Position numbers and translations under genes: made by a program. The notes beneath the pieces are model-generated. The model ran no database searches and was not told where the DNA came from. It saw nothing but the letters and a program-made list of their open reading frames with translations. From the NCBI GenBank assembly GCA_046346705.1, contig JAXMHR010000010.1, positions 141,602 through 205,601 of the forward strand: a stretch of 64,000 nt of DNA, given 5' to 3'. Source of the stretch: Verrucomicrobiota bacterium. GTDB taxonomy: Bacteria > Verrucomicrobiota > Verrucomicrobiia > Limisphaerales > UBA9464. Positions 13,025 to 56,046 of the stretch are shown here, one piece after another. The stretch's first letter is position 1; each line of letters opens with the position of its first letter.

Positions 13025-13103
13025 ACATCGCGATGGTCAACTCGTTCTTTCGCGTCCGAAGTCCTCGGGGTAGGGTCCGGGGACGTGAAGAAAGGGTCGT
13101 TTG

Positions 13104-14274: not shown

Positions 14275-14305
14275 GGGGCCGGCTGCTGGGATCCCGGGAT
14301 CCGTC

Positions 14306-14812
14306 ATGGCGGAAAGGGCCGAACTCGGGCAGTCTTTCACCATGCTGAAGACGCAATCGGCCGAGGGGCTTCCCTCGGGGGCGGAGTTTCGATTTGCTGT
14401 GGTCGCCTCCAAATACAACGCGACCTACGTGGACGGCCTGTTGAAGGCGGCGCTGGGTACTCTCCAGGGAGCCGGAGCTCCTGAACCGGAGGTAATCCGT
14501 GTCCCCGGTTCCTGGGAAATTCCTGTCGTGGCCGCGGCTGTGGCGCGCAGGAACCGGGGACGCCCCGATGCCATCCTGTGTTTTGGCGTCATCTGGCAGG
14601 GGGAGACCTTCCATGCCCAGCACATTGGAGATGCCGTGAGCGATGCCCTGATGCGCCTTGCCGTCGAATTCGGGGTGCCCGTAATCCATCAGGTGCTCAC
14701 CGTGTCCACGGAGGAGCAGGCGGTCGCGCGTTGCCTCAATCCCGAAACGAATCGGGGAATAGAAGCCGCCCGGACCGCGCTCGAAATGGCACAGTTGCTT
14801 CGAACCCTCTAG
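14306..14812 (+). CDS. ribH: 6,7-dimethyl-8-ribityllumazine synthase
   Basis: 'RFAVVASKYNATYVDGLL', 'VPGSWEIPV', 'DAILCFGVIWQGETFHAQHIGDAV', 'PVIHQVLT'. A single intact frame. Confidence 0.9.
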   Translation: MAERAELGQSFTMLKTQSAEGLPSGAEFRFAVVASKYNATYVDGLLKAALGTLQGAGAPEPEVIRVPGSWEIPVVAAAVARRNRGRPDAILCFGVIWQGETFHAQHIGDAVSDALMRLAVEFGVPVIHQVLTVSTEEQAVARCLNPETNRGIEAARTALEMAQLLRTL

Positions 14813-17154: not shown

Positions 17155-17184
17155 GAGGGAGAGTCGGTTTTTGTACCGGCAAAT

Positions 17185-40774: not shown

Positions 40775-43700
40775 ATGCCCACGCTCTGTCGCGCCCGACT
40801 TTTGGTGCTGGCTTTCCTCCTGTTGGTGCCGTCTCGCCACCTCCTGGCCGACCCCCAGGTGTGGCAGATAGGCACAAACAATCCCTCCGGAGGCGGAACC
40901 GGCGAATTCTCTGCACAAAATGGCGTGAACGACGCCCCGCCGGGATCCTCGACCGCATTGGACGACGACTACTATACCGCCGGTACCTATCCCGCAGGAT
41001 TCAACGGCCTCGCCTCGACGCTGACCGTAGCGGCAAATGAGCCTTGGCTGAACTGGGAAAGTGCCCTGACGCTGGGTGACAAGACGAATAGGATCCACCT
41101 GAATTTGACCAGCGCCCAGGTGACGCCTTCTTCATGGTTCCGTCTCTCGTTTGAGTTTGCCTCGGCCAATGGGACCTCAAACGGGGTTAGCCTCGGATTC
41201 GGGGATCACGACATTCTCGTTCAATTCAAAAACGCGGCCGGCACGCCGACGGTCCTGTTCTCGAATCGGATTTCCGCCGCCACCAATGTTGTCCTCGAAT
41301 TTCCGATGAGCTCGGTGGTCTCAACGGCCGGCGCGAACACCATCGAATTCATCCGGACTGGCCCGTCGCCCGCCGGCACCTCCTACTACATTGCTTTCGA
41401 TTACGTCCTTCTTGAGGCGGATGCGGGAGGAAACACCCCGCCCGTTCCTACTCCAGTGGGAACCGTGGCCGTCAATGAATTGGCTCCCTTGACCCTCAAT
41501 TTGGCGACTTCGGATACGGACTCCACGGCAGCAGAGCTAGTTTACGAATTGATCTCCGGACCGGTCGGCTTGGCGGTCTCCCCAACAGGGACGGTCACCT
41601 GGACGCCCACCGAGGCGCAGGGACCCGGCTCCTACGGTGTCGCGGTGCGTGTCACGGACGCCGGTGTGCCGCGAATGAGCGCGACCAACAGTTTCACCAT
41701 TACCGTCAACGAACTGAATACGGCGCCGACCACCGCCACCATCTTCAACAGCACGTTTGACGAAGGATTCAATTACACGGCGCAGATCAATGTCTCCGAC
41801 ATCGATCTGCCCGCGAACACCTTCACGTACACAATTCTCTCCGGACCGGCCGGACTCACCGTTTCCCCCACCGGTCTCATTTCCTGGCCCACCACCGAGG
41901 CTTCCGGACCCTCCGTAAACACGGTCTCGATCAAGACTTCGGACAGCGGTCCGGGAAATCTTAGCGTGACCAACACCTTTACACTCACGGTTCGCGAGGT
42001 CGTAACGGCTCCCGTTCTTCCCGTCCCCGCCACAGTGACCATCGACGAAGGAGCTACCTATTCCTTCCAGCTCGCCGCAACGGATGCCGACCTCCCCGCC
42101 AATACCCTCACCTATGCACTCGTCTCCGGACCGGCCGGCCTCACGGTCAGTACCGGCGGACTCATCAACTGGGTGACGACGGAAGCCACCGGTCCGTCGA
42201 CCAATATCGTTCAGGTCAAGGTGACCGACAATGGCGTCCCAACTTCCAGCACCACCAACCAGTTCCAAATTGTGGTTCGAGAGGTAAATTCGGCGCCAGT
42301 ATTGCCTGCAGTCACGACCCAGTATGTGGATGCGCTCTCCCCCATGGCGCTCAACATCCCCGTCGTGGATTCCGACCTACCCGCGAACTCTCTGACGTTT
42401 TTCCTCCAAAGTGGGCCGACTGGATTAACCCTCAGTTCCTCGGGCCTTGCGTCCTGGGTGCCGACTCCTTCGCAGATTCCATCCACCAACGTCGTGGTCT
42501 ACTCGGTCACCGATGGGGGGTCTCCGCCACTGTCCGCCACCAATCAATTCACGGTGGTGACCCGGACTGCCAGCCTCCGGTATCTCTGGCAAATCGGAAC
42601 TGAAAGCAACCCGGGAAGTTCCGCGGAATTCAGTGTGCAGAACAATGTCAATGACCTCGCACCCGGAAAGGTGACCCGCCTTGCTTCCGACCCCGAGTAC
42701 AACGCGGTTTCGAATCCCACCGCGGATGACGATTATTATTTTTCAGGAATCTATCCTGCAGGCTTCAACAAGCTGACTTCACTGATTCAGGTTCCCAACG
42801 ATGAACCAAGCACCGCCTGGGAACACAGCCACACCTTGGGGGATCTGACCAACCGAATTCACTTCCGCCTCGGTCCCGCCCAGGTCGTCGGTTCCTCCCA
42901 GCTTCGATTTTCCTTCAAGTTCCATACCGCCGCCCGGTATTCGAACAATGTGGTCCAAGGGTTCGGTGACCATGACATGGTGGTACGTTTCCGGAATGGA
43001 AACGGAATCGAGACAATCCTTTACTCGGACCGCATTTCCCAAGCGACCAACATCAGTCTCCTGTTCGGATCCACCACAGCCCAGGCGACGCTCGGCCCCA
43101 ATACGATCGAAATCGTTCGGACCGGCCCCACGGCCGTGAATACCTCGTATTGGATCACCTACGACTATCTCCGACTCGAGGCGGACGCCAGCGGCAACAC
43201 CTCGCCCGTGCCAACACCCGTGGCAGATACTCCCATCGATGAAATGGTTCCATTCTCACTGGCCCTCGGAGCGACGGATTCCGATGTACCGGCGCAGTCG
43301 TTGCTTTTTGAAAAAATTTCAGGTCCGGCAAACCTGACTATCAGCCCCACGGGCCAGCTCGCCTGGACCCCGGATGAGTCCGAAGGGCCGGCCACTGTAC
43401 CTGTTAGTGTTCGAATCACGGATTCAGGTTCACCTCCGCTGAGCGTCACCAACACCTTTAATTTGATAGTTCGCGAGGTGAACCGGCCGCCGGTCCCCGT
43501 GGCCGTCGGAACCCAGACCATCGATGAACTGGTGCCCTGGTCCCTGACGCTGTCCTCCAGCGACCCGGACCTGCCCGCGAACTCCCTGAGTTACTCAAAA
43601 CTGTCCGGCCCCGGAAACCTCGCGGTCAGTACTGCCGGCGTTGTCACATGGACCCCGGCGGAAACCGACGGTCCCGGAACCTATCCGGTGAGCGTCCTGG

Positions 43701-46700
43701 TCACAGATTCAGGGAGTCCTGCCCTCAGTGCCACCAACAACTTCAATGTGACGGTTCGCGAGATCAATCTGGCGCCTTCCATCGTATCCGTAACCCAGCA
43801 GGACGCAACCGAGCTTAGCGCCTTCTCCGTCAATCTGACCGCTTTCGATCCGGACCTGCCCGCCAACGCCCTCAGTTTCTCGCTCGTGTCCGGACCAACG
43901 GGTCTAACCGTGAGTCCCGGAGGGACCGTCAATTGGACGCCAGCCGAAGATCAGGGGCCTTCCACCCAAACCGTCGTCGTGAAGGTGACCGACAACGGCA
44001 ACCCCAATCTTAGCGGAACCAATTCCTTCGTCATCGTCGTTGCGGAAACGAATGCCCCGCCCGCGTTTCAGCCCATCGCCGATGTCACCCTTGACGAACT
44101 TACACTTCTGAGTTTCTCAATCACCGCGACGGATCCCGACATTCCGGCAAATTCACTTTCCTACGGACTCGTCAGCGGGCCTGGCGGATTGACGGTTTCC
44201 GCAGCAGGCTTAGTAACCTGGACTCCGACCGAAGCCCAGGGCCCCTCCACCAACCTCGTCCTCGTCCGCGCAACCGACAACGGCGTCCCATCCCGCAGCG
44301 TCACCAATCAGTTCACGGTCGTTGTCCGTGAAGTAAACACGGCACCCACAACGGTGTCCCTGGGTGTCTTGGCTCTCGATGAGCTGACTTCCCTCTCCGC
44401 TTCGGTGACGGCCTCCGATACTGACGTGCCTGGCAACACGCTGACCTACCAGCTGATTTCCGGCCCCACCGGGCTGACCGTCTCCTCCTCCGGAGCCGTG
44501 GCATGGAACCCCGGGGAAACCGATGGGCCATCCACCAACGCCGTCCTGGTCCGGGTTACCGACAACGGATCCCCCCAGTTAAGTGCCACCAATCAGTTTT
44601 CGGTCATCGTCCGCGAAGTCAACAGTGCGCCGTCCATCACGTCCCTCCCCCCCACCACGATCTCCCAACTGGCGCCACTCTCCCTCCAACTGACTGGCGT
44701 CGATCCGGATCAACCGCTCAATTCCCTGTCCTTCACCCTGCTCTCCGGGCCCGCCGGACTCAGTGTAAGCTCGGGAGGACTTGCGACGTGGTCGCCCTCC
44801 GCGGTGTTTAATCGGACGACGAATCAATTCATCGTCCGGGTCACCGATTCGGGGATCCCATCGCTTAGTGGCACCAACCAGTTCACGGTCATTGTCGCGG
44901 AGCCCGAGGCGCGGACGGTTTGGCAGATTGGAATTGCCGACGATCCCCAGGTGCTCCCCTACAATCCGGACGCCGAATTCGGGGTCCCTAACGGATTGGT
45001 GGATTCCGCCCCCGGAGCAATTACTCCTCCCGCGGGCGGTCCGCCGCCGGCGGACGACGACTTCTATTTCGCCGGGACCTATCCCGCCGGCTACTTCAGT
45101 CATGCCACCGACCGGGTGGTGACGAACGACGAGCCGGATTCCGCATGGGAACGGGCCCTCACCTCTTCGGATCCGCTGAATCGGTTCCACTTTCTCCTGA
45201 ACAGCGGCCAAATCGGCCTTCGCTCCCACCTCTTTCTGACCGTTGGATTGCCCCTCGGCGGATCGGTGGTGGGAGGCGTTCCTGCGTCCGAATTCGGAGA
45301 ACATGATTTTGTCGTCCGCTTCCGAAACGGAATTGGGGGAATTACCGTTCTTTACTCCAATCGGCTGACGTTCGGAACCAATCTCGTGTTGGATATTCCC
45401 GCGACCGCAGTCGGCGCAACGCTGGGAGCAAATGCCATTGAACTGGAACGGACGGGTCCCTCCGCCCCGGACACGACCTACTCCCTCTCCTTTGATTATG
45501 TTCGCCTCGAATCGGTCACCGGGGCGAACGAACCCCCAACCGTCGGAAGCATTCCGCAGCTCACTGTGGACGAGCTGACGACACTGAACTTCACGATTCC
45601 GTCTACCGACAGTGATACGCCCCAATTCAACCTAATCCACACCCTGCTCTCCGGGCCATCCGGGCTGCAGATCAATGCGTCGGGAGGACTGGTGTGGACC
45701 CCGACCGAGGCCCAAGGACCCTCGACGAACACCGTTGTCTTCCGAGTCACGGATGATGGTGTGCCGCCCCTGAGTTCGACCAACCAACTCACGGTCGTCG
45801 TCACGGAAGTCAATACGAGCCCCACTCTCACACCGGCTCCCGATACCATCATCAGCGAAGGGTCCGTCCTCAATCAGACGCTCGGAGCAACCGACTCGGA
45901 CCTTCCCTCCAATTCCCTCACGTATTCCCTAGTCTCCGGGCCGCCGGGACTCACGGTTTCGCCTTCGGGTTCGATGCAATGGACGACCGGCGAGGGCACG
46001 GGGCCGGTCTCGGCCACGGTTTACGTCCGGGTCACGGACAACGGTGAACCCCAACTCAGTTCCACCAATGCCTATACGGTGGTCGTCCTCGAGGTCAACC
46101 AACCTCCGGTCATGGACCCGGTTGCCGACCAGACCCTGGACGAACTGACCCCACTATCGATCAATTTGACCGGCAGCGATGCTGACGTCCCGGCGAATAC
46201 ATTGACCTACTCACTGGTGAGTGGCCCGGCCGGCATGAACGTTTCCTCTGGAGGCCTCCTGACCTGGATTCCCGCGGAAAGCCAAGGGCCATCCTCCACG
46301 CTCATCAAGGTCCGAATCTCGGACAACGGCACCCCCCCGATGAGCGCGACAAACCAGTTCACGGTCACCGTCCGGGAAATCAATACCGGCCCCGTCCTTG
46401 CCGCAATTCCGAACCAGAACATCAGTTCCGGAACCATTCTCAATCTCACCCTCTCTGCAGTCGACTCCGATCTGCCTCCGAACCCGCTGACCTACGCCCT
46501 CGTGTCGGGCCCCTCGGGGATGACGGTCAGCACTGCTGGCCAGCTGACTTGGAATCCCGGCAACGCACAGATCCCCTCCACCAACACGGTCCAGGTCAGC
46601 GTAAATGACAATGGAACTCCTGCACTGGGCATGACCAATCAGTTCACTGTGGTCGTGACAGGAACCGCACCCCGCTTTGTATGGGCCATTGGAACCAACG

Positions 46701-49700
46701 ACGCTCCCGGTACCGCTGCTTCGAAGGAATTCACCCCCCAAAACAACAAGAACGACGTCAAACCCGGCTCCGCTTCCCTCCTCGACGACGACTACTACAC
46801 GGCCGGCACTTATCCTGCCGGATTCAACGGACTCACCTCGCCTCTCGTCGTAGCATCCGATGAAGCCTGGCTGAACTGGGAAAGCAGCCTGACCCTCGGC
46901 GACAAGACAAACCGTCTTCATCTAGTTCTCGACCCCACCCAGGTAACACCCGATTCGATCTTCCGACTTAGTTTCGAGTTCTATCTTGGTCAAATGACGG
47001 TCTCCAATGTCGCCTCGGGCTTTGGCGATCACGACATCCTCGTGCTGCTCAAGAACGGTGTTGGGGGATCGACCCAGTTGTTTTCCGGGCGAATCTCCGC
47101 GCCGAGCACAAACATCATCACGCTCCCGATGAGCGCTGTTGGCGCGACTGCCGGAGCCAACACCATTGAGTTTATCCGCACCGGGCCCACGGCGCCCAGC
47201 ACCTCCTATTATATAACCTTTGACTACGTTCTCGTTGAAGTGGATGGCGGTGGAAATCTCCCACCGATTCTTCCGGTTTTGCCTCCCATCAATGTGAACG
47301 AACAAACGACCGTCGCCTTGGATCTCAGCGCCACTGACAGCGACACCGCCAAGAATCAGCTCGTGCACACGATGCTGAGCGGACCCCCGGGTTCCACGCT
47401 GACCACCGCCGGACAGTTCACGTGGCCCACCACGGAGACCAATGGAAACTCCTCTGCTACCGTGGTGGTCAAGGTCACGGACAATGGAATCCCGAACCTG
47501 AGTGCCACCAACCAGTACACGATTAATGTCCTCGAAGTGAATCGTGTCCCCGTATTCGCGGCGGTTCCACAGATGGTGGCGGACACCCTGACTCCTCTTT
47601 CCATCTCCCTCAGTGCCACGGACCCGGATATCCCGGTGAATGCCCTGTTCTACGACCTCGTTAGTGGTCCGGACGGCCTTGTCGTTTCACCGGCGGGCAA
47701 GGTGACGTGGATGCCGTCACCGAGCCAGATTCCATCCACCAACACCGTACTGGTCCGGGTAACCGACGACGGAATCCCCCCCCTCAGCGCCACCAATCAG
47801 TTTGTCGTGGTGACCCAGCCTGTGGTGGATCGTGACGCATGGCTCATCGGCGTGGACGACAGTCCTCTCATTCTTCCCTACAACCCGGCTGGTGAGTTTT
47901 CCGCACCGAACTATTTAAATGATTTACCCCCCGGGTTGGTGACCCGGTTACCAGGAGATCCCCAGTACAACGCAGGGAGCAATCCGCTACGGGACGATGA
48001 CTTCTATTTCACCGGAGTCTACCCTGCTGGCTTTAACGGTCTGACCAGCCAGTTACTCGTGCCAAATGACGAGCCATTTTCAGCGTGGGAATCGATGCTG
48101 ACCCAGTCAGATAGGACCAATCGATTCCATTTCCGACTGAACGCGGGACAAATCAGCGCCAGTGGCCATCTACAGCTCCGATTCGAGTTTCCTTCCGCAT
48201 TCATCATCAGCAACGGAGTGGCATCCTCGGTCTTTGGAGACCATGACATAGTGATCCGATTCAAAAGCGGTGCAGGCGATAGTACTGTGCTTTACTCGAA
48301 CCGCGTGAGTCAGCCCACGCAGGCCACGATCGAAATACCCGCCACAAACATCACGGCGACTCTGGGAGCGAACTCCATCGAAATCGTCCGCACCGGCCCG
48401 AATCCAACATCCCCTCAATATTACCTCTACATGGACTATGTCCATTTGCGGGCCGATGCCGGAGCGCGCCTGGATGCCGACGGCGACGGTCTGCCTCTGG
48501 CCTGGGAGAGAGACAATTACCTCGACGACAACAATCCCGCGGATGCGAATTCTGATTCCGACCATGACGGCTTGACGGCTCTTCAGGAATATAATGGCGG
48601 AGTAAATTCCACCGACCCGCGGCGCCCCGATTCCGACTTCGACGGCTTGACGGACGCCCAGGAACGACTCTTGGGTACGGACCCCAACAAGGCCGACACC
48701 GACGGCGACGGACTCACTGACTTCGAGGAGGTCAACGGGGTCCCCGCAAGTTCGCCCCTCTTGGTCGATTCCGACGGGGACGGTTTCTGGGATGCGGTCG
48801 AACGTCGCAGGGGTACCGATCCCATGGACCCCGCGAGCAAGCCCACCCGCTTCCGCGGGGCCGTCGGAATCAGTTTTGTCTCTACCGGGGGTCTGGAGGG
48901 AAGGATTGGGCCCAATGCGCTCGCCGGCGTCATTCCGCAGCTCAACTGGAACGAGACCGCGCCGTTGACTCTCGGAAGCAAGCCCTCCGGAAACCTCTCT
49001 GACATCGCGTCTCCAGTCGTTGGGCAATTAGTGCGAAGTGACGGAACGAATCTTCCAAACCTATCCTTCTCCTGGACTGCGGACGGTGCTGCGTCAACCG
49101 GAAACAGCGGCACACCGGACAGCCAGTTGATGAACGGCTACATCCGGGCATCCTCGTTGATGCCGGCGACCTTGACGGTCAGCAACGTGCCGTTCTCCCA
49201 GTATGATGTGTACGTCGTGGTTGGAGCACCCTCGGATCAATATCAAGGACGCGTCCGCCTCGGGACGGACCCGAGCACAGATCGCCTATTCCAAGCACTG
49301 AGCACGGCCCCACAGTCGGAGTTCGTCGATATTCCTGCAGGATCGGCCCAAAACCGGCCCGCGAACGTTGTTCGCTATTCGGGTCTGACCTCCACCGCAT
49401 TTTCCGTGACCGTTACTCGTGTTTCGGGAACCAGTGTTGGAATCCACGCCATTCAGATCGTTGACACCCAACTCGACAGTGATCTCTCCGGTATTCCCGA
49501 CTGGTGGGAAGTCAAATATGCACTTCAACCGGGTTCAGCGGCACTGGCCGCGAGTGACTCGGATGGCGACGGTCTCTCCAATATTCAGGAATACCTGCGG
49601 GGAAGCGACCCCCGGGTTGCCGATACGGATGGCGACGGCATCCCGGACGGCCAGGAAACCGCAGTCAGCGCCCTGAAATGGGACACCGACGGCGACGGTA

Positions 49701-50656
49701 TCTCCGACAAGGCTGAACTTACCGCGGTGTTTCCCACGGACCCCTCCCTCCAAGATACCGATGGTGACGGAATCTCTGATTCGGTCGAAAACCTTTATCG
49801 ATCCGATCCAACCTATAATGAGGCGAGCAGCCCCACCTTCTATGGGTGGACTCCAGTTTATCGGAGTATTTCCGCCCAGTGGGAATGGAATCTGGAGAAC
49901 GTCCAACTCGTATGGGATCACGGCGTCGGCGCTCCTGCCCCCACGGACGTCAACGAATTGGAATTGCTCAACCTTTCCGTGCGCAACAGCAACGGAGCGG
50001 ATCCGCAAACGTTCCAGATGGTGCTGCGCTATTTCCGGGGAGTCGTCACCCACTCGTTCTCCAGTGACGCCTTGGGCGGATTCAGCCTCCCAGACGGTCC
50101 CGGAAAGAATCTTCGGGACGAACCCGCATCATCCCGGCTCGACGATATCACGGGTGCCCTCGGATTCAGTGGGTATGGTCCAGCGGATGTCTCCGACCGG
50201 CTGCGGTTCCGGCTCTTTGCCCAAAGGGGAACCGGGAACTCGTGGAATCTGAACTTCGAGATTCGAAACCAGACCAAGAACCAGGTGGTCGTTTCCCGCA
50301 ATTTCCTCAATTGCACCGCGGCCGCATCCGTGGACGCCGGGACAGCAGCCTGGATGGATTCCAACGGCACTACCAATCGGGTATCATTCTCCACCAGCAC
50401 GGGCATCGCCCTTTATTTCTCACCGACACCCCTCGAAACCCGCCCGCAATTTGCAGCGACCCGAGATTCGGATGATGATGGAATTCCAGACGTCTGGGAG
50501 ACCGCGCACGGCGGAAACCCTCTGATTGCCGGAGATGCCTTAAAGGACGTCGACAATGACGGCTTGAATGCCCGGGATGAATACTCTCGCCGGAACCGAC
50601 CCGAAGAATCCGGATTCGGACGGAGATGGGATTCGAGATGGGACGGAGTATCGTAA
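40775..50656 (+). CDS. Giant secreted modular protein: 5 unassigned ~200-aa modules + 16 cadherin-like/He_PIG-type repeats + thrombospondin-type-3-like Ca repeats; probably continuous with the DUF1800 ORF
   Basis: Signal peptide 'MPTLCRARLLVLAFLLLVPSRHLLA'. Single 3,293-codon frame. Repeat architecture was read directly from the translation (see the repeat features and findings). Confidence 0.85.
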   Translation: MPTLCRARLLVLAFLLLVPSRHLLADPQVWQIGTNNPSGGGTGEFSAQNGVNDAPPGSSTALDDDYYTAGTYPAGFNGLASTLTVAANEPWLNWESALTLGDKTNRIHLNLTSAQVTPSSWFRLSFEFASANGTSNGVSLGFGDHDILVQFKNAAGTPTVLFSNRISAATNVVLEFPMSSVVSTAGANTIEFIRTGPSPAGTSYYIAFDYVLLEADAGGNTPPVPTPVGTVAVNELAPLTLNLATSDTDSTAAELVYELISGPVGLAVSPTGTVTWTPTEAQGPGSYGVAVRVTDAGVPRMSATNSFTITVNELNTAPTTATIFNSTFDEGFNYTAQINVSDIDLPANTFTYTILSGPAGLTVSPTGLISWPTTEASGPSVNTVSIKTSDSGPGNLSVTNTFTLTVREVVTAPVLPVPATVTIDEGATYSFQLAATDADLPANTLTYALVSGPAGLTVSTGGLINWVTTEATGPSTNIVQVKVTDNGVPTSSTTNQFQIVVREVNSAPVLPAVTTQYVDALSPMALNIPVVDSDLPANSLTFFLQSGPTGLTLSSSGLASWVPTPSQIPSTNVVVYSVTDGGSPPLSATNQFTVVTRTASLRYLWQIGTESNPGSSAEFSVQNNVNDLAPGKVTRLASDPEYNAVSNPTADDDYYFSGIYPAGFNKLTSLIQVPNDEPSTAWEHSHTLGDLTNRIHFRLGPAQVVGSSQLRFSFKFHTAARYSNNVVQGFGDHDMVVRFRNGNGIETILYSDRISQATNISLLFGSTTAQATLGPNTIEIVRTGPTAVNTSYWITYDYLRLEADASGNTSPVPTPVADTPIDEMVPFSLALGATDSDVPAQSLLFEKISGPANLTISPTGQLAWTPDESEGPATVPVSVRITDSGSPPLSVTNTFNLIVREVNRPPVPVAVGTQTIDELVPWSLTLSSSDPDLPANSLSYSKLSGPGNLAVSTAGVVTWTPAETDGPGTYPVSVLVTDSGSPALSATNNFNVTVREINLAPSIVSVTQQDATELSAFSVNLTAFDPDLPANALSFSLVSGPTGLTVSPGGTVNWTPAEDQGPSTQTVVVKVTDNGNPNLSGTNSFVIVVAETNAPPAFQPIADVTLDELTLLSFSITATDPDIPANSLSYGLVSGPGGLTVSAAGLVTWTPTEAQGPSTNLVLVRATDNGVPSRSVTNQFTVVVREVNTAPTTVSLGVLALDELTSLSASVTASDTDVPGNTLTYQLISGPTGLTVSSSGAVAWNPGETDGPSTNAVLVRVTDNGSPQLSATNQFSVIVREVNSAPSITSLPPTTISQLAPLSLQLTGVDPDQPLNSLSFTLLSGPAGLSVSSGGLATWSPSAVFNRTTNQFIVRVTDSGIPSLSGTNQFTVIVAEPEARTVWQIGIADDPQVLPYNPDAEFGVPNGLVDSAPGAITPPAGGPPPADDDFYFAGTYPAGYFSHATDRVVTNDEPDSAWERALTSSDPLNRFHFLLNSGQIGLRSHLFLTVGLPLGGSVVGGVPASEFGEHDFVVRFRNGIGGITVLYSNRLTFGTNLVLDIPATAVGATLGANAIELERTGPSAPDTTYSLSFDYVRLESVTGANEPPTVGSIPQLTVDELTTLNFTIPSTDSDTPQFNLIHTLLSGPSGLQINASGGLVWTPTEAQGPSTNTVVFRVTDDGVPPLSSTNQLTVVVTEVNTSPTLTPAPDTIISEGSVLNQTLGATDSDLPSNSLTYSLVSGPPGLTVSPSGSMQWTTGEGTGPVSATVYVRVTDNGEPQLSSTNAYTVVVLEVNQPPVMDPVADQTLDELTPLSINLTGSDADVPANTLTYSLVSGPAGMNVSSGGLLTWIPAESQGPSSTLIKVRISDNGTPPMSATNQFTVTVREINTGPVLAAIPNQNISSGTILNLTLSAVDSDLPPNPLTYALVSGPSGMTVSTAGQLTWNPGNAQIPSTNTVQVSVNDNGTPALGMTNQFTVVVTGTAPRFVWAIGTNDAPGTAASKEFTPQNNKNDVKPGSASLLDDDYYTAGTYPAGFNGLTSPLVVASDEAWLNWESSLTLGDKTNRLHLVLDPTQVTPDSIFRLSFEFYLGQMTVSNVASGFGDHDILVLLKNGVGGSTQLFSGRISAPSTNIITLPMSAVGATAGANTIEFIRTGPTAPSTSYYITFDYVLVEVDGGGNLPPILPVLPPINVNEQTTVALDLSATDSDTAKNQLVHTMLSGPPGSTLTTAGQFTWPTTETNGNSSATVVVKVTDNGIPNLSATNQYTINVLEVNRVPVFAAVPQMVADTLTPLSISLSATDPDIPVNALFYDLVSGPDGLVVSPAGKVTWMPSPSQIPSTNTVLVRVTDDGIPPLSATNQFVVVTQPVVDRDAWLIGVDDSPLILPYNPAGEFSAPNYLNDLPPGLVTRLPGDPQYNAGSNPLRDDDFYFTGVYPAGFNGLTSQLLVPNDEPFSAWESMLTQSDRTNRFHFRLNAGQISASGHLQLRFEFPSAFIISNGVASSVFGDHDIVIRFKSGAGDSTVLYSNRVSQPTQATIEIPATNITATLGANSIEIVRTGPNPTSPQYYLYMDYVHLRADAGARLDADGDGLPLAWERDNYLDDNNPADANSDSDHDGLTALQEYNGGVNSTDPRRPDSDFDGLTDAQERLLGTDPNKADTDGDGLTDFEEVNGVPASSPLLVDSDGDGFWDAVERRRGTDPMDPASKPTRFRGAVGISFVSTGGLEGRIGPNALAGVIPQLNWNETAPLTLGSKPSGNLSDIASPVVGQLVRSDGTNLPNLSFSWTADGAASTGNSGTPDSQLMNGYIRASSLMPATLTVSNVPFSQYDVYVVVGAPSDQYQGRVRLGTDPSTDRLFQALSTAPQSEFVDIPAGSAQNRPANVVRYSGLTSTAFSVTVTRVSGTSVGIHAIQIVDTQLDSDLSGIPDWWEVKYALQPGSAALAASDSDGDGLSNIQEYLRGSDPRVADTDGDGIPDGQETAVSALKWDTDGDGISDKAELTAVFPTDPSLQDTDGDGISDSVENLYRSDPTYNEASSPTFYGWTPVYRSISAQWEWNLENVQLVWDHGVGAPAPTDVNELELLNLSVRNSNGADPQTFQMVLRYFRGVVTHSFSSDALGGFSLPDGPGKNLRDEPASSRLDDITGALGFSGYGPADVSDRLRFRLFAQRGTGNSWNLNFEIRNQTKNQVVVSRNFLNCTAAASVDAGTAAWMDSNGTTNRVSFSTSTGIALYFSPTPLETRPQFAATRDSDDDGIPDVWETAHGGNPLIAGDALKDVDNDGLNARDEYSRRNRPEESGFGRRWDSRWDGVS
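40859..41435 (+). repeat. Unassigned module copy A1 (subtype 1)
   Basis: 'VWQIGTNN..EFSAQNGVNDAPPGSSTALDDDYYTAGTYPAGFNGL..NEPWLNWESALTLGDKTNRIHLNL..FGDHDILVQFKN..LFSNRIS..GANTIEFIRTGP..YYIAFDYVLLEADAGGN'. Boundaries are approximate. Confidence 0.7.
41436..42583 (+). repeat. Run of 4 cadherin-like/He_PIG-type ~95-aa repeats
   Basis: Each unit carries 'D.DLPAN(T/S)(L/F)TY.L.SGPAGLTVS..G.I.W.TTEA.GPS.N.V.VK..D.G....TN.F...VREV..AP'-type landmarks. Confidence 0.7.
42584..43198 (+). repeat. Unassigned module copy A2 (subtype 2)
   Basis: 'LWQIGTES..DPEYNAVSNPTADDDYYFSGIYPAGFNKLTS..VPNDEPSTAWEH..TNRIHFRL..FGDHDMVVRFRN..LYSDRISQ..GPNTIEIVRTGP..DYLRLEADASGN'. Confidence 0.7.
43199..44917 (+). repeat. 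Run of 6 cadherin-like/He_PIG-type repeats
   Basis: 573 aa at ~95 aa per unit. Units contain 'DPDLPANSLSY..LSGP.GLTVS..G.VTWTP.E..GPST..V.V.VTD.G.P.LS.TN.F.V.VRE.N.AP'. Confidence 0.7.
44918..45530 (+). repeat. Unassigned module copy A3 (divergent subtype 2)
   Basis: 'VWQIGIADDP..ADDDFYFAGTYPAGYFSH..TNDEPDSAWERAL..LNRFHFLL..FGEHDFVVRFRN..LYSNRLT..GANAIELERTGP..FDYVRLESVTGAN'. Confidence 0.7.
45531..46678 (+). repeat. Run of 4 cadherin-like/He_PIG-type repeats
   Basis: 383 aa, four units with the same landmarks (for example 'DSDLPSNSLTYSLVSGPPGLTVSPSG', 'DADVPANTLTYSLVSGPAGMNVSSGG'). Confidence 0.7.
46679..47257 (+). repeat. Unassigned module copy A4 (subtype 1, closest to A1)
   Basis: 'VWAIGTND..EFTPQNNKNDVKPGSASLLDDDYYTAGTYPAGFNGL..DEAWLNWESSLTLGDKTNRLHLVL..FGDHDILVLLKN..LFSGRIS..GANTIEFIRTGP..YYITFDYVLVEVDGGGN'. 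Confidence 0.7.
47258..47836 (+). repeat. Run of 2 cadherin-like/He_PIG-type repeats
   Basis: 193 aa, two units ('DSDTAKNQLVHTMLSGPPGSTLTTAG', 'DPDIPVNALFYDLVSGPDGLVVSPAG'). Confidence 0.7.
47837..48462 (+). repeat. Unassigned module copy A5 (subtype 2, closest to A2)
   Basis: 'AWLIGVDD..DPQYNAGSNPLRDDDFYFTGVYPAGFNGLTS..VPNDEPFSAWES..TNRFHFRL..FGDHDIVIRFKS..LYSNRVSQ..GANSIEIVRTGP..MDYVHLRADAG'. Confidence 0.7.
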
Positions 50657-52862
50657 TGGTTCGGATCCAGCAAATCCGGCGAGCCTGCCCCAGTTTGCCG
50701 GATTCACCTGGCCCACAGGAGAAGATTTGAATGGTGACGGCTTGCCCGACGCATGGCAGGCATTTTACCACGCCTTCGAACTCGATCCCTCCGGGGACGC
50801 CGATGGCGACGGTCAATCCAATGCACAGGAAGCCCTTTGGGGAACCAATCCGTTCGACCCCGCGTCCAAAGTCTCTCTTACATTCACTCCGCAGGACCCC
50901 AATGTATTGCTAACCTGGCCCAATCAGCCCGGGAAATCTCAGACTCTGCTCTGGAAGACGGGTACGAATGATTGGGTCCAGTATTCGTCACCTCCGCAGG
51001 TGGACAACGGAATCGCCAGTGTTGTCCTGGAGAACCGGATCGCACTCTATACCAGCGAACTGTATCGATTGGACACCGTCGATCAGGATTCCGATGGGGA
51101 CGGCCTATCGGATTGGGCAGAAATGATTATCGGGAGCGATCCCAATAATGCAAACAGCACCCGTTCCCCGGTTCGCATCCTGAGTTCAACGGGGACCGTT
51201 CTCGGATCTGTGTCCGGCGACTATGCCGCATTCGTCGAGCAAATCCGCCAGGCGCCCAACATGGGGGCCCAAAAGATGTCCAGGGTGCACGCCTCCCGCT
51301 TTCTCCAGCAGGCCACCTTCGGATCCACCTCTTCGGAAATCGCCCGCCTGCAACAAATGGGCTACGCAGCGTGGATCGACGATCAGATCCAGAATCAGCC
51401 GAAAACCCTATTTTCCCCCTACATCCAGGAGATCCGAAAGGACTTTTACGGACCCCAGCTGGACCTCACTTACAGCTACGCATCCTTCGACAATGCCGTT
51501 CGGGCGAACAACATTCTGACGAGTTTTGCGCGAGGCGCGCTTCAGGGGCCCGATCAGTTGCGTCAACGGGTGGCGTTCGCCCTAAGTCAAATCCTCGTAA
51601 CCTCACGTCGCGCCGGCCAGTTCCTCATGTCTCCCCTGGCCATGACGACCTACTACGACATTTTCGTCCGAAGAGCCTTCGACAACTACTATGATATCCT
51701 GAGGGAAGTTACGTTCAGTCCGGTGATGGGACAATATCTCAGCCATATCGGCAATCAAAAGGCTATTCCGGAAATCAACCAGTATCCGGACGAGAACTAT
51801 GCCCGTGAGGTTCAACAGCTCTTTACCATCGGCCTCTGGGAGTTGAACCAGGACGGGACAAAAGTCCTAAATTCTCTCGGAAATCCGATTCCGACCTATG
51901 GCACCCGTGAAATCACTGAATTTGCCCGGGTTTTTACGGGCATGTGGTATGGGGGCCAGCCTTGGGGTACCGGCGGATACAACGACGTGGACAATACGAT
52001 CCCGATGAAGATGTGGACGGACAAGCATGACTTCGATTCCAAGTCACTGCTCAAGGGATTCGTTATCCCCGCTCGCACTCCGAGCGTGACGAACGCCGAG
52101 CGGGATGTCGAAGACGCGCTTCACAGCCTTATCGATCATCCGAACACCGCACCCTTCCTCAGTTCACAACTGATTCAGTTCCTGGTCACGGCCAATCCCT
52201 CACCTGCCTATGTCGCCCGAATCGCTGCGGTATTCGCCAACGATGGATCCGGAAACCGGGGAAATCTCGGAGCCGTCGTTAAAGCCATCCTGCTCGACCC
52301 AGAAGCGCGCGACCCGCGATGGATTGTGGGTAATCCGAGCTACGGGCGCCTGAAGGAGCCGATCCAAAGGGCCATGGCAGTCGCCCGGGTGGCCAATCTG
52401 GGGCGGTATCCCAAGCTTCTTTGGTGGAGTTTCGATGATTTCTACAACGCCTCCCTCCAGGAACCCATGCTGGCGCCGACGGTCTTCAACTTCTTCCATC
52501 CTAAATATCAACCCCCTGGCTTAATGGCGGATGCGGGCCTCGTAGGGCCGGTATTTGAAATTACCGACAGTTACACCAGCATTTCCCTGCCAAACAAACT
52601 GTGGGAGTACACGGAGAAGGGATTCCGGTATGACGCCTATCAGTTCCTGCCCGACTATTCCGAGTTACTGGCCATCGCGGACGACGTGGATGCCTTGATT
52701 GACGAGGTAAACGTGCTCTTCTGCGGCGGACTGATGTCGGGCCAGACCCGGGCTCTCCTCCGGGAGCCTCTCCTGCAGATTCCGTCCTATGACCGCCTGA
52801 TGCGGGTCAAGATTGCCATCTACGTCACGATCGCCTGCCCCGAAGGCGCGGTCCAACGATGA
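50568..52862 (+). CDS. DUF1800 domain protein with N-terminal thrombospondin-type-3-like repeats; lacks its own signal peptide and is probably the frame-shifted C-terminal part of the giant ORF
   Basis: DUF1800-type region from about 51270 ('SRVHASRFLQQATFGSTSSEIARLQQMGYAAWIDDQI', 'YPDENYAREVQQLFTIGLWELNQDGT', 'HDFDSKSLL', 'FNFFHPKYQPPG'). N-terminal 'GTDPKNPDSDGDGIRDGTEYRNGSDP' continues the repeat of the upstream ORF. The two ORFs overlap by 89 nt in different frames. Confidence 0.8.
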   Translation: MPGMNTLAGTDPKNPDSDGDGIRDGTEYRNGSDPANPASLPQFAGFTWPTGEDLNGDGLPDAWQAFYHAFELDPSGDADGDGQSNAQEALWGTNPFDPASKVSLTFTPQDPNVLLTWPNQPGKSQTLLWKTGTNDWVQYSSPPQVDNGIASVVLENRIALYTSELYRLDTVDQDSDGDGLSDWAEMIIGSDPNNANSTRSPVRILSSTGTVLGSVSGDYAAFVEQIRQAPNMGAQKMSRVHASRFLQQATFGSTSSEIARLQQMGYAAWIDDQIQNQPKTLFSPYIQEIRKDFYGPQLDLTYSYASFDNAVRANNILTSFARGALQGPDQLRQRVAFALSQILVTSRRAGQFLMSPLAMTTYYDIFVRRAFDNYYDILREVTFSPVMGQYLSHIGNQKAIPEINQYPDENYAREVQQLFTIGLWELNQDGTKVLNSLGNPIPTYGTREITEFARVFTGMWYGGQPWGTGGYNDVDNTIPMKMWTDKHDFDSKSLLKGFVIPARTPSVTNAERDVEDALHSLIDHPNTAPFLSSQLIQFLVTANPSPAYVARIAAVFANDGSGNRGNLGAVVKAILLDPEARDPRWIVGNPSYGRLKEPIQRAMAVARVANLGRYPKLLWWSFDDFYNASLQEPMLAPTVFNFFHPKYQPPGLMADAGLVGPVFEITDSYTSISLPNKLWEYTEKGFRYDAYQFLPDYSELLAIADDVDALIDEVNVLFCGGLMSGQTRALLREPLLQIPSYDRLMRVKIAIYVTIACPEGAVQR

Positions 52863-52893: not shown

Positions 52894-54354
52894 ATGACAC
52901 CCATCTCACGCCGTGGCTTCCTACGGCAGATCAATTGTGCCGCAGTCGGTTCGGGCGCCCTTCTCAACACCCTGTTGAATCTCAAGCTGGCGAATAGCCT
53001 GACGGCACAGAGTGCGTCCGGACGCAAGGCGCTGGTTTGCTTGTTTCTCAACGGGGGAATGGATTCGTTCAATTTCCTCGTGCCCACCGATTCGCGGTAC
53101 AGCACCTACTCTGCCTCGCGGGGCGTGGCCGGTTCCGAGGGTGGGCTCTCCCTCGCTCAGGCATCCCTCCTTCCGCTGTCCGCGCCCCTTGCCGACTATG
53201 GATTGCACCCTTCCTGTCCACAGATCCGGGACATGGTCAACGGCACCGGCACCCGGTTCTCCGGGAAACGTCGACTTTCGTTTATCGCGAACCTCGGAAC
53301 ACTGGTTCAACCCATCACCAAGTCTCAATACAATGCCTGGGAGCAGGGAAACAATGCCGCGCTACCGGTGCCGCGCGCGTTGTTCTCCCACGCCGACCAG
53401 GCGGAGCACTGGCAGACGGCGGTTCCACAGGGTCTGCGGCACCTAACGGGTTGGGTGGGCCGGGCAGCGGACATCCTGGATGCTGCGAACAACCAAGGAG
53501 GGATCTCCATGAGCATTTCCCTCAACGGCAACAACGTGTTGCAAGTGGGGAATCAAACCCAGCCGTTTGCGATCACCCCCAATGGGTCCCTGACGTTTTC
53601 GGCAGATGCCGGGGGCTCTCCGATCAACCCACTCCAACTCAAGAACAGCACCCTTCGGAACACGCTGGATCAGCATTACGCCAACTTGTTGACTGAATCA
53701 TTTTCCCGGATCACCAAGGCCGCGGACGAGGCCCAGCAATACTTCCAAGCGCAGTATGAATCCCCCGGAGCAAGCCTCGGCGCAACCGTGGATGCCCTGT
53801 TTCCCGCCAGCAACGCCGTCGCGATGACGCTGAAGGCCGTGCTCAAGTCGATCAAGATTAGCAGTCAACTCGGACTGAGCCGACAGAGCTTTTTTGTAAA
53901 CATCGGGGGATGGGACCACCACGGTGAGCTTCTCGACACCCAGGCGGGCATGCTGGCCACACTGGACACCGCCATTGGCGCCTTCCAGTACGGCTTGGAG
54001 CTTCTCGGTCTCGCCAACGACGTCATCACATTCAGCGCGTCCGATTTCGGGCGGACCCTGCGTTCGAACGGCCGGGGCAGCGATCATGCCTGGGGGGGCA
54101 ATGCCTTTGTGTTCGGCGCACCCGTGGATGGCGGAAAGCTGTTCGGCACCTTTCCCAGCCTCGCTCTGGATGGTCCGGACGACGTCGGACGCGGAGGGCG
54201 GATGCTTCCCAGCATGCCGATCGACAAGTATTTTGCCGAACTGATGCAGTGGTTCGGGGTCCCCAGCGGCAACCTCAGCTACGTGCTTCCCAACATCGCC
54301 AACTTCTATAACGTGAACTCCACGACGCCGCCCATCGGCTTCGTGAAGCCATGA
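52894..54354 (+). CDS. DUF1501 domain protein (canonical partner of DUF1800) with Tat-type leader
   Basis: 'ISRRGFLRQINCAAVGSGALL', 'LFLNGGMDSFNFLVP', 'GGWDHHGELL', 'SDFGRTLRSNGRGSDHAWGG'. Confidence 0.85.
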   Translation: MTPISRRGFLRQINCAAVGSGALLNTLLNLKLANSLTAQSASGRKALVCLFLNGGMDSFNFLVPTDSRYSTYSASRGVAGSEGGLSLAQASLLPLSAPLADYGLHPSCPQIRDMVNGTGTRFSGKRRLSFIANLGTLVQPITKSQYNAWEQGNNAALPVPRALFSHADQAEHWQTAVPQGLRHLTGWVGRAADILDAANNQGGISMSISLNGNNVLQVGNQTQPFAITPNGSLTFSADAGGSPINPLQLKNSTLRNTLDQHYANLLTESFSRITKAADEAQQYFQAQYESPGASLGATVDALFPASNAVAMTLKAVLKSIKISSQLGLSRQSFFVNIGGWDHHGELLDTQAGMLATLDTAIGAFQYGLELLGLANDVITFSASDFGRTLRSNGRGSDHAWGGNAFVFGAPVDGGKLFGTFPSLALDGPDDVGRGGRMLPSMPIDKYFAELMQWFGVPSGNLSYVLPNIANFYNVNSTTPPIGFVKP

Positions 54355-54968
54355 AACGAACGGGCCTCGGGGTCGGTCTCATCATTATTGCGGGTTTGCT
54401 GGTCTGGCTATTCGTCAGGCATTCGCCCCCCCCCGTTTCGGTCCCGGTGCCAGTCGTACCGGAGGCGCCCCCGCCAACATCCGGGATCCGGGTGACGTCC
54501 ACCCCGATCGTCCAAGGGCCTGACCCCGGTTCCCTCCGGCCCTTGATCGGCGAGGAGATGCTTTTGGACTATGGGTCCCCGGCTACGACCCCGGTCAATG
54601 ACCTCAAACTCCTTGGGGCATTGATCAACAACATGGGCCTGCTCGTGAAGAACCTGTATGAGCGGCCCATGAGCGGAAACGAAGATTGGTCGAGGGCTCT
54701 TCGCGGACAGAATCCCGCCCACGAGCGGTTCCTTCCCGACAACTATCGCATTTTTAATTCAGATGGCCTTCTGGTGGATCGCTGGGGGACGCCCTTGTTT
54801 TTTCATCCGGTCGGATACAAGCGGTTCGACATTCGTTCCGCGGGCCCCGACCGTCGGATGTGGACCGCGGACGACATTCATCGGGATGCCGACGGAACCT
54901 TTCGAGAACCTTCGGACCTGAATCGGCCTGGCCTCTACGAACCCCCCGTGTCCGGCAGGCCGAATTAA
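54351..54968 (+). CDS. Membrane-anchored protein with a GspG/pseudopilin-like C-terminal motif but no prepilin cleavage motif
   Basis: The ATG overlaps the DUF1501 stop (ATGA at 54351-54354). TM 'GLGVGLIIIAGLLVWLFV'. C-terminal 'LVDRWGTPLFFHPVGYKRFDIRSAGPDRRMWTADDI' resembles the T2SS G-type 'D.WG.P..Y......Y.l.S.G.D...gT.DDI' pattern. No 'GFTLIE'. Confidence 0.45.
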   Translation: MKRTGLGVGLIIIAGLLVWLFVRHSPPPVSVPVPVVPEAPPPTSGIRVTSTPIVQGPDPGSLRPLIGEEMLLDYGSPATTPVNDLKLLGALINNMGLLVKNLYERPMSGNEDWSRALRGQNPAHERFLPDNYRIFNSDGLLVDRWGTPLFFHPVGYKRFDIRSAGPDRRMWTADDIHRDADGTFREPSDLNRPGLYEPPVSGRPN

Positions 54969-55146
54969 TCCTGCGAGCATACAGGGTCCTAATTCCGACT
55001 GCTAACCCGGGTTTCGCTCTTCGAGAGGAGGTGGACGCGGATAGGCCGAGGTCCTCCACGCAACCGTCTTGTGCACGGAAGATAGTCACGATGATCCGGA
55101 GGGGACCATCGCTGGTGGAACTCCCAGCCCAAAAGATTAGGTATCA

Positions 55147-55410
55147 GCGCTTGCACCATCTCGGGTTCGGTAGCGCGTGGCGCGGCAGGCATAGGTTCCT
55201 CCCTTCCGTCAGCCGAAACCACATCTCCACTATCATCATCTCGCCAAGGACTTCCCGCACCCGCGCCAAAGTCAGTGACGGCCCCGGCGACCGCAATTTG
55301 TGCTTCAGACATACCCAAAGGTAGTAGCCCAGGAACGCCCCCACTTGTGGGCCTGTCCGGTTCCAGACCGGCCACAAGTTCGGTTCGCTCTTCAGAATCT
55401 GGATGAATTT
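55147..55410 (-). pseudogene. Possible relic of an IS5/IS1182-type transposase N-terminal (DUF4096-like HTH) segment
   Basis: The minus-strand translation 'RTGPQVGAFLGYYLWVCLKHKLRSPGP...TLARVREVLGEMMIVEMW' loosely follows the family pattern 'GRPR...R..L.GIL.VL.TG..W..LP.....T...R...W...GVW'. There is no start codon and no DDE domain. The match is weak. Confidence 0.2.
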
Positions 55411-55446
55411 GGGCCTAAGAAATCCCTGATCGACGCGTAGTCCCGA

Positions 55447-56016
55447 GTGCACGGCATGGAGTCCAAGAATCTCGCACCCCTCACCGAACTCCGAGACCAG
55501 CACTCGGAGTTCATCCGGACCGCCTTGGAGCGTTACGAGTCTCCACTCGTTCGCTACTGCTACGGGCTGACTGGAAACTTGGATACGGCGCGAGACGTGG
55601 TGCAGGACACCTTCCTCAGATTGTGCGAACAGGCGCCGGGCGCGGTTGAAGGCCATTTGGCGCAGTGGTTGTTCACAGTCTGCAGAAACCGGGCCCTCGA
55701 CGTGCAACGAAAGGCAACCCGCATGACTTCCCTCAATGAAGGCGAGCTCGACCACCGGGCCTCCGCCGACCCCTCGCCGGCCGAATCCGCGGCTACCCGG
55801 GATACCGTACACCGTATCGACGAGTTGTTGGCGGATCTTCCCCTGAACCAACGGGAAGTCGTCCGGTTGAAGTTTCAGAACCAACTGAGCTACCAGGAGA
55901 TTGCCGCCGTGACGTCCCTTAGCGTTGGAAACGTCGGATTCCTGCTCCACACGGCCCTAAAAACACTCCGGAGTCGCCTCGACAGGCTCGAGCGAACGTC
56001 ACCTTCCCGCGCCTGA
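55447..56016 (+). CDS. ECF-type RNA polymerase sigma-70 family factor
   Basis: Region 2 'DTARDVVQDTFLRL..WLFTVCRNRALDVQRK'. Region 4 'LPLNQREVVRLKFQNQLSYQEIAAVTSLSVGNVGFLLHTALKTLR'. Confidence 0.85.
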   Translation: MHGMESKNLAPLTELRDQHSEFIRTALERYESPLVRYCYGLTGNLDTARDVVQDTFLRLCEQAPGAVEGHLAQWLFTVCRNRALDVQRKATRMTSLNEGELDHRASADPSPAESAATRDTVHRIDELLADLPLNQREVVRLKFQNQLSYQEIAAVTSLSVGNVGFLLHTALKTLRSRLDRLERTSPSRA

Positions 56017-56046
56017 CCTTCTCCGCCGACTGAACTCCAACGTTCC

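Follow-up and report, generated by a model that had tools for sequence, protein, structure and literature searches.

One long DUF1800 gene divided by a single extra base, most likely an assembly error, in a Verrucomicrobiota contig

The window, that is the whole stretch of 64,000 nucleotides analyzed here (Verrucomicrobiota bacterium, assembly GCA_046346705.1, contig JAXMHR010000010.1, positions 141,602 to 205,601), contains two overlapping open reading frames (ORFs), a giant one and one encoding a DUF1800 protein, followed by a gene for a DUF1501 protein and by a third, small gene:

40775..50656, + strand: giant ORF of 3,293 aa, which reads ...DVDNDGLNARDEY, then SRRNRPEESGFGRRWDSRWDGVS and a stop
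50568..52862, + strand: DUF1800 ORF of 764 aa, which reads MPGMNT-LAGTDPKNPDSDGDGIRDGTEYRNGSDPANP...
50585..50585, + strand: extra T (GAATAC-T-CTCGCC), missing in every independent assembly examined
50586..50656, + strand: out-of-frame tail of the giant ORF (SRRNRPEESGFGRRWDSRWDGVS and stop), a by-product of the insertion, noncoding in that frame
50568..50584, + strand: apparent start of the DUF1800 ORF (MPGMNT), an out-of-frame reading of the ..NARDEY codons and a false start
52894..54354, + strand: DUF1501 partner gene, with twin-arginine signal MTPISRRGFLRQ... (Pfam 96.3 bits, cut-off 27)
54351..54968, + strand: third gene of the cassette, 205 aa, overlapping the DUF1501 stop by 4 nt

The overlap shared by the two ORFs is 89 nt long. 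After ...DVDNDGLNARDEY the calcium-repeat text resumes in the +1 frame as LAGTDPKNPDSDGDG..., leading into the DUF1800 ORF, and once the T at 50585 is removed (GAA TAC t CTC GCC) a single open frame results, 12,087 nt long and encoding 4,028 aa. The insertion changes ACCTCG into ACTCTCG, a context that is not a homopolymer, and the stretch SRRNRPEESGFGR is unique to the truncated form, just as the tryptic peptide DEYLAGTDPK, across the junction, is unique to the fused one. TSP3_bac repeats (Pfam) flank the break, and the continuation in the +1 frame is no chance resemblance. The original prediction had located a single-nucleotide break near 50585 and a continuation of the calcium repeat in the +1 frame: the break is found exactly there, as independent assemblies lack that T, and the continuation is confirmed by TSP3_bac repeats on both sides and by orthologs that run straight through. 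Its count of 22 codons for the tail has to be corrected to 23.

Why then does the downstream ORF look leaderless? Its N-terminus is hydrophilic and has no signal peptide, as had been predicted. Its ATG is embedded in G+C-rich DNA of coding type, whereas A+T-rich leaders precede the genuine starts of both the giant ORF and the DUF1501 gene. The lack of a ribosome-binding site, which had also been put forward as a sign, is by itself not diagnostic, since a clear Shine-Dalgarno site was found at none of the three starts compared (giant ORF, DUF1800 ORF and DUF1501).

The base at 50585 is absent from the contigs of X1, X2, X3, X4, X6, X7, X8, X10 and X12, which represent eight or nine public wastewater or activated-sludge runs from at least six studies, the comparison being made on assembled contigs, where minority variants get dropped. 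Between positions 20001 and 60000, the window shows zero substitutions against the X1-X3 contigs, and the indel at 50585 is the sole difference. In no run did the share of sampled junction-region words exceed 0.97. On a 23.9-kb contig (L001), the gene is called as a single product of 4,028 aa, in agreement with the predicted product of about 4,030 aa ending in DUF1800; this product matches Big_9, Cadherin_3, TSP3_bac and DUF1800, the contig is identical to the window at 14,834/14,834 other compared positions, and, once translated, it reproduces the last 3,322 aa of the conceptual fusion. Direct alignment shows that L001 and two further loci (L002 and L003) lack the T, the latter two likewise reading GAATACCTCGCC. 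The gene-position collection holds no record of the 3,293-aa and 764-aa products, and look-ups of the 711-aa and 439-aa ORFs of the window gave none either. Neither form of the exact junction, with or without the T, has a match in genome_contigs or metagenome_contigs, so that neither collection contains the source genome or its conspecifics in exact form.

The fused protein has a modular architecture, whose parts are placed as follows:

40775..50584, + strand: part of the gene before the break, first 3,270 codons
40775-40849, + strand: Sec-type signal peptide MPTLCRARLLVLAFLLLVPSRHLLA/DP, with which the gene begins
40862..47839, + strand: four super-modules specific to this lineage, with aa 30, 605, 1383 and 1970 as their first residues (motif map)
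47840..50584, + strand: canonical body up to the break, fused aa 2356 onward, collinear with L007-L010 by tblastn
48473-48844 and 49556-49804, + strand: TSP3 clusters in the canonical body
50465..50675, + strand: TSP3 calcium-binding repeat cluster with the break, D.D.DG cores at fused aa 3231, 3258 and 3280
50586..52862, + strand: part of the gene after the break, last 758 codons and stop, with TSP3 repeats, a small beta-rich domain and DUF1800
about 51297-52790, + strand: DUF1800 domain (PF08811), residues 244-741 of the downstream ORF

Each super-module consists of a module of about 200 aa ("WQIG..DDDYY..GDHD..RTGP..FDYxxLE") followed by Big_9/cadherin-like Ig domains, which number 4, 6, 4 and 2, respectively (Pfam Big_9, Cadherin_3), and all four are missing from the orthologs of about 1,700 aa. 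The five copies of the WQIG module are 45-51% identical in alignment; its structural model is of low confidence (pLDDT 53.6), and its weak Foldseek matches to jelly-roll or carbohydrate-binding-type domains are a hint only. The canonical body, common to all orthologs, contains the fifth WQIG module and two domains of about 200 aa without family assignment. The break falls at fused aa 3270, between the second and third repeats of its TSP3 cluster (cores 3258 and 3280), and TSP3 (PF18884) scores above the gathering threshold in both the giant ORF (93.8 bits) and the DUF1800 ORF (63.7 bits). DUF1800 itself scores 250.7 bits (Pfam cut-off 26.1), and its AlphaFold2 model is largely alpha-helical (pLDDT 91.4, pTM 0.92); the fold search gave this model no neighbor in the PDB (best E 0.63, TM at most 0.14), and the PDB sequence search likewise found no match. 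Comparison with NCBIfam yielded no informative names.

Are the relatives fused or split? The junction was compared at the GTDB species loci of Verrucomicrobiota whose upstream stop lies within the locus, 66 in all: in 65 of them one ORF aligns through the equivalent point, so that the ortholog comparison proposed at the outset comes out in favor of fusion. At 61 of these 66 loci, a single ORF starts with a signal peptide, ends in DUF1800 and spans 1,500 aa or more. The ORFs that cross the junction carry a Sec signal peptide at the N-terminus and DUF1800 at the C-terminus, their median length being about 1,680 aa. At the species level the nearest relative is L011 (85% aa identity), which shows DVDNDGLNARDEYLYGTDPKNPDSDSDG in a single frame and aligns without gaps to fused aa 2453-4028. 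In a library-wide HMMER search, where 2,876 proteins match DUF1800 at E<=1e-30, residues 6-764 of the DUF1800 ORF map inside proteins of 1,600-2,260 aa, from about residue 900 onward. The conserved TSP3 columns in alignment A2 are D218, D220, G221, E227, G231, T232, D238, D240 and D242. The architecture had been described as unfamiliar for the family, which does not hold: proteins of about 1,650-1,950 aa with signal peptide, N-terminal module, TSP3 and DUF1800 are the rule in Verrucomicrobiota. The expectation that DUF1800 should be exported fared better, as a Sec signal peptide heads the whole protein; for that same reason, the domain needs no export signal of its own.

The downstream genes are conserved too. 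The DUF1501 neighbor is kept in L001-L010, and a gene of 177-206 aa occupies the third position of the cassette in L001, L002 and L007-L010, although the 205-aa product in the window has no family match.

A search with the DUF1800 domain in a word-indexed collection gave only proteins shorter than 1,000 aa among the matches listed, several of which began mid-domain without a signal peptide. Recurrent biological splitting of the family was considered on this account and rejected as an ascertainment artefact: L007-L010 carry the same long gene frameshifted elsewhere, and intact genes of about 1,700 aa are the norm both in the DNA-based sample and in the library-wide HMMER search.

The locus is thus a single gene, as read directly from the independent assemblies. 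The T is unique to the present assembly, and the independent assemblies and relatives examined all encode one long secreted protein with DUF1800 at its end, so the ORF split is not biological. We consider it quite probable that one gene is interrupted by a single extra T specific to this assembly, with an error of consensus or polishing as its likeliest source, this origin being inferred; a private mutation is the less likely source. Positions 40775..52862 form one gene, encoding a predicted Sec-exported, calcium-binding multi-domain protein of 4,028 aa with DUF1800 at its C-terminus, and the Tat-exported DUF1501 partner and the small conserved third gene come after it. The T at 50585, in the linker between two TSP3 repeats, shifts the frame, giving rise to a 3,293-aa ORF with a 23-codon nonsense tail and to an overlapping, seemingly leaderless DUF1800 ORF of 764 aa; neither a frameshifting mechanism nor a separate translation start is required.

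Two observations count against an error: a site outside any homopolymer is not the most typical one for a long-read error, and no further difference occurs within 40 kb.

It is unlikely that the T is a recent, true frameshift in the source strain or population, making the gene a fresh pseudogene, although the insertion site is no homopolymer and the surrounding 40 kb are letter-perfect against short-read contigs, so that the local consensus appears well polished. Several other metagenome-assembled genomes also bear frameshifts elsewhere in their orthologs (L007-L010, L023 and L043). However, the contigs that carry the broken orthologs of L008 ("...np1212") and L023 ("np2-np3") are named in nanopore style, and L008 and L009 are broken at homopolymers (GGG, TTTT), so sequencing error is favored over biology for L008, L009 and L023. 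Demonstrable errors also exist within the window itself, in a housekeeping gene: ribBA, at 13.1-14.3 kb, is split across three frames, and comparison of this region with three runs revealed about 39 indels and 21 substitutions, the indels being absent from the short-read contigs. Products of the split form are not on record, and all eight or nine runs covering the site lack the T, the population consensus being the intact allele. Were the pseudogene real, the cell would secrete a truncated 3,293-aa protein without DUF1800; the DUF1800 part would either disappear or be produced only in traces, with no export signal.

As contigs lose minority variants, the T may be an actual low-frequency or strain-private allele. 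That a sub-population of this wastewater species truly carries it, so that two cell states exist, seems decidedly unlikely; some cells would then display the full 4,028-aa protein and others secrete the 3,293-aa repeat protein, a natural DUF1800 knockout that could be used to probe the role of the DUF1800/DUF1501 pair.

If the locus held two real genes under translational coupling, one for a giant adhesin and the other for a DUF1800 protein of its own, cytoplasmic or leaderless, this would account for the 89-nt overlap and for the ATG at 50568, yet such an arrangement is very improbable: this ATG lies within conserved TSP3 repeat codons, the final 23 codons of the giant ORF match no homolog, homolog alignments begin at residue 6-7 of the DUF1800 ORF and map inside longer proteins, and the relatives with clean sequence are all fused. 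Scarcely credible is programmed +1 ribosomal frameshifting at UAC-UCU-CGC, or a phase-variable switch toggling DUF1800, with the T genuine: the geometry does need a +1 shift, which restores the full-length product, and a slip would be tolerable in a flexible linker, but on inspection GAU GAA UAC UCU CGC CGG has no in-frame stop or rare codon, no GGAGG/Shine-Dalgarno stimulator lies upstream and tRNA-Tyr is unable to re-pair from UAC to ACU, while conspecific contigs and 65/66 orthologs are in frame, so the shift is not conserved, and the change is one base rather than a CT-run unit, hence not slipped-strand phase variation.

The annotation should either merge the two ORFs into one gene of 4,028 aa or flag it as frameshifted, and the "leaderless DUF1800" should not be read as a sign that the family has a cytoplasmic form. 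Judging from sequence, DUF1800 in Verrucomicrobiota regularly closes long calcium-repeat proteins that are Sec-exported and encoded beside a Tat-exported DUF1501, which places the pair outside the cytoplasm, a modest descriptive point on predicted localization rather than a surprise. The architecture is standard for the clade, and only the 2,330 aa of additional repeats on the N-terminal side set this lineage apart.

How does this locus compare with what is already known? As with the residual indel errors that split genes in long-read metagenome assemblies, an indel of one base turns the gene into a pair of overlapping ORFs; the gene is also interrupted at other places in L008 (at a homopolymer) and in L023, and ribBA in the window is indel-dense. 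Unlike such errors, the insertion at 50585 lies off a homopolymer and is the only discrepancy across 40 kb.

In Proteobacteria, DUF1800 and DUF1501 genes form adjacent pairs, predicted to be single operons, next to bacterial chitin synthase genes, and DUF1501 proteins and Tat export have been discussed as well (PMC5122149). No N-terminal repeat region is described there for DUF1800, and the gene context is unlike that of the window (PMC5122149).

Shorter exported DUF1800 proteins occur in cultured relatives, namely Coraliomargarita akajimensis (P0068, 960 aa), Rubellicoccus peritrichatus (P0080, 946 aa) and Pontiella agarivorans (P0052, 734 aa). Their DUF1800 domain is 47-50% identical, P0068 and P0052 each begin with a signal peptide of their own, and calcium-repeat-like motifs (DxDGNGxPDxWE / DADGDG) precede DUF1800 in all three, but their N-terminal region is far shorter and different, and both the WQIG module and the pair of middle domains are missing.

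The closest counterparts are the TSP3/DUF1800 proteins of about 1,700 aa in Verrucomicrobiota, such as those of Verrucomicrobium sp. BvORR034 (L042, 1,705 aa), P0121 (1,715 aa) and P0122 (1,705 aa). They share the plan of fused aa 2356-4028, with a Sec signal, one WQIG..DDDFY module, TSP3 clusters with two unassigned domains between them and a C-terminal DUF1800, and they have the same continuous ..DGL.N.DE[YF]LAGT.P..DSDGDG.. junction, as well as the same downstream neighbors (DUF1501 and a gene of about 200 aa) where these are listed (L001-L010). At 4,028 aa, the window protein is the longest member seen here, the longest of 150 library hits having 2,261 aa, and the longest at a GTDB locus measuring 1,917 aa from the first ATG, or 2,137 aa if every type of start codon is allowed. 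On its N-terminal side it carries four super-modules more than these counterparts, which add about 2,330 aa in the form of WQIG modules and 16 Ig-like domains.

The giant ORF and the DUF1800-bearing ORF downstream of it meet at an overlap of 89 nt, at the head of a gene series laid out in the window as follows.

40775..50656, plus strand: giant ORF, 3,293 aa, with Pfam matches to Big_9, cadherin-like Ig domains and TSP3_bac repeats
50568..52862, plus strand: downstream ORF, 764 aa, with Pfam matches to two TSP3_bac repeats and DUF1800 (250.7 bits)
52894..54354: the next gene, DUF1501 (Pfam)

In its own frame the giant ORF runs to ...DVDNDGLNARDEY and then through 23 codons rich in Arg, Ser and Gly before it stops, while the +1 frame opens the downstream ORF as MPGMNT-LAGTDPKNPDSDGDGIRDGTEYRNGSDPANP..., so that the window sequence confirms the original prediction in its reading of the giant ORF, the break and the +1-frame continuation. 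When the T at 50585 is deleted in silico, a single frame of 12,087 nt results, encoding 4,028 aa.

The base was checked by aligning contigs from public wastewater and activated-sludge runs to the window, at contig level since the runs are available in assembled form. Contigs of four runs (X1, X2, X6, X7) match 50300-50900 perfectly apart from one base missing at 50585, and this base is likewise missing in X8, X10 and X12 and in the X3 and X4 contigs. The runs without it, from both activated sludge and wastewater, represent at least six studies, X7 and X8 looking like the same data. Across 20001-60000, the X1-X3 contigs show 0 substitutions and no indel other than that at 50585. Direct alignment of the conspecific Logan contigs L001-L003 gives GAATAC-CTCGCC against GAATACTCTCGCC in the window. 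Apart from that base, L001 agrees with the window wherever the two were compared (14,834 positions) and translates to the C-terminal part of the conceptual fusion, and its gene is called as a single 4,028-aa product matching Cadherin_3, Big_9, Sde0182_C, TSP3_bac and DUF1800; no record was found of either split product (3,293 or 764 aa). The proposal that the two ORFs are one protein of about 4,030 aa is thus supported, both by the frame restored without the T and by this called product. Around the junction, the best runs contain a fraction of 0.97 of the words sampled and fall short of 1.0, the missing words presumably being those specific to the T, which no indexed run would carry.

A base at 50839 is missing in one X10 contig (depth 2.3), probably an error of this low-depth contig; X8, one other run covering the site, agrees with the window. 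At 17174, the window has T where the X1, X2 and X3 contigs have A, the sole other point difference seen outside a noisy patch at 13100-14300. Three short-read runs that agree with one another depart from the window there in about 39 small indels and 21 substitutions, and the riboflavin gene ribBA (DHBP synthase/GTP cyclohydrolase II) is fragmented over at least three frames.

13261..13533, 13424..14116 and 13882..14274: ORFs of the split ribBA; one ORF has DHBP_synthase positions 86-121, a second has positions 149-190 together with GTP_cyclohydro2 positions 3-89, and a third has GTP_cyclohydro2 positions 87-165
14306..14812: ribH, intact

This is probably an unpolished stretch, and the window's assembly does contain uncorrected indel noise; for that reason an assembly error is the most economical reading of the extra T. 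The break is most likely no biological feature. A real private mutation keeps a small but appreciable probability, given that the site lies outside any homopolymer and that the sequence around it is otherwise clean. Programmed +1 frameshifting is not supported, the site having no slippery or stalling context and the shift being present in neither conspecifics nor orthologs. Phase variation does not fit, as the change is one base within a CT run, a poor match to repeat slippage. Two genuine coupled genes are excluded by the giant ORF's 23-codon tail, which matches nothing, by the downstream ATG, which sits inside a conserved repeat, and by the clean relatives, which are all fused.

The orthologs were sampled at the DNA level from GTDB species representatives, yielding 80 Verrucomicrobiota loci, 66 of them with the upstream stop inside the locus. 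To the question of whether orthologs are fused or split, the answer is that 65 of these 66 have a single ORF whose alignment runs through the equivalent of the junction, ..DGL.N.DE[YF]LAGT.P..D[ST]D.DG... The closest species-level locus (L011, a "Verrucomicrobiales bacterium" MAG; 85% amino acid identity over 1,576 residues, gapless) reads DVDNDGLNARDEYLYGTDPKNPDSDSDG there in one frame. A library-wide HMMER search places residues 6-764 of the downstream ORF inside proteins of 1,600-2,261 aa, from about 850-1,500 onward.

A word-indexed search listed only DUF1800 matches below 1,000 aa, some starting mid-domain, but these were rejected as the typical gene form: the list is biased to broken or truncated genes, because its loci L007-L010 carry the same long gene, frameshifted elsewhere (L007 at ~9780-9800; L008 at ~8650 and ~9975; L009 at ~9230; L010 at ~350). 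L023 and L043 are also frameshifted. Homopolymers (GGG, TTTT) mark the breaks in L008 and L009; the contigs of L008 and L023 are of nanopore style. As a result of such frameshifts in other metagenome assemblies, protein databases contain many 400-1,000-aa "DUF1800" fragments that start mid-domain and have no signal peptide. Three loci (L013, L015, L022) come from MAGs titled either "uncultured Bifidobacterium sp." or "Bifidobacteriaceae", and the title "Akkermansia muciniphila" is given to several others; these titles look like mislabels or placeholders, because the loci have the Verrucomicrobiota-type DUF1800 gene of ~1,700 aa.

The relatives examined share a conserved cassette made up of the DUF1800 protein, a Tat-signal DUF1501 protein and a third protein of ~200 aa. 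Its end and the genes that follow it in the window are these.

54351-58416: stretch downstream of DUF1501, starting with the conserved 205-aa protein, which has no family match
55447..56016: ECF sigma factor, after the cassette
After the ECF sigma gene: 789-aa protein with a weak N-terminal zf-HC2, vWF_A/VWA and YfbK_C

The 789-aa protein is possibly an anti-sigma factor; an ECF sigma gene beside the cassette is not conserved in L007-L010. In the literature library searched, the six papers that mention DUF1800 give it no function. Its domain (window 51297-52790) is modelled confidently by AlphaFold2 as mostly alpha-helical (pLDDT 91.4, pTM 0.92). Foldseek gives it no structural neighbour in the PDB (best E 0.63), and no solved chain matches it in sequence; its invariant motifs include DQLRQR and PDENxAREvxQLF. 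The working model is a large, calcium-stiffened extracytoplasmic protein that would display DUF1800, outside the cytoplasm, to the DUF1501 partner.

The full-length protein is organized as follows.

aa 1-25: signal peptide
aa 30, 605, 1383, 1970 and 2356: starts of five super-modules, with 4, 6, 4, 2 and 0 Ig-like domains, respectively
aa 2567-2690, 2928-3010 and 3231-3300: TSP3 clusters, with the break at aa 3270
Between the TSP3 clusters: two ~200-aa domains without family assignment
aa 3341 and 3436: single TSP3 repeats
From about aa 3510 to the protein end: DUF1800

Each super-module opens with a ~200-aa module, "WQIG..DDDYY..GDHD..RTGP..FDYxxLE", whose five copies (window 40862-48460) are 45-51% identical and match nothing in Pfam or NCBIfam. 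The module has the look of a beta-sandwich domain family not yet described; its low-confidence structure model weakly resembles jelly-roll and carbohydrate-binding domains, a likeness that is only a hint.

In the GTDB sample, 61 of the 66 loci have DUF1800 at the end of a single ORF that reaches 1,500 aa or more (median ~1,680 aa; up to 1,917 aa when the first ATG is taken as the start), and in most of the N-termini inspected a "WQIG...DDDFY" module comes after a Sec signal peptide. Residues 2356-4028 are the equivalent of the entire mature ortholog in other species, and the N-terminal 2,330 aa are an expansion particular to this lineage. The architecture, which the original prediction had found unfamiliar for the DUF1800 family, is standard for this clade, and the window's copy is the longest seen.
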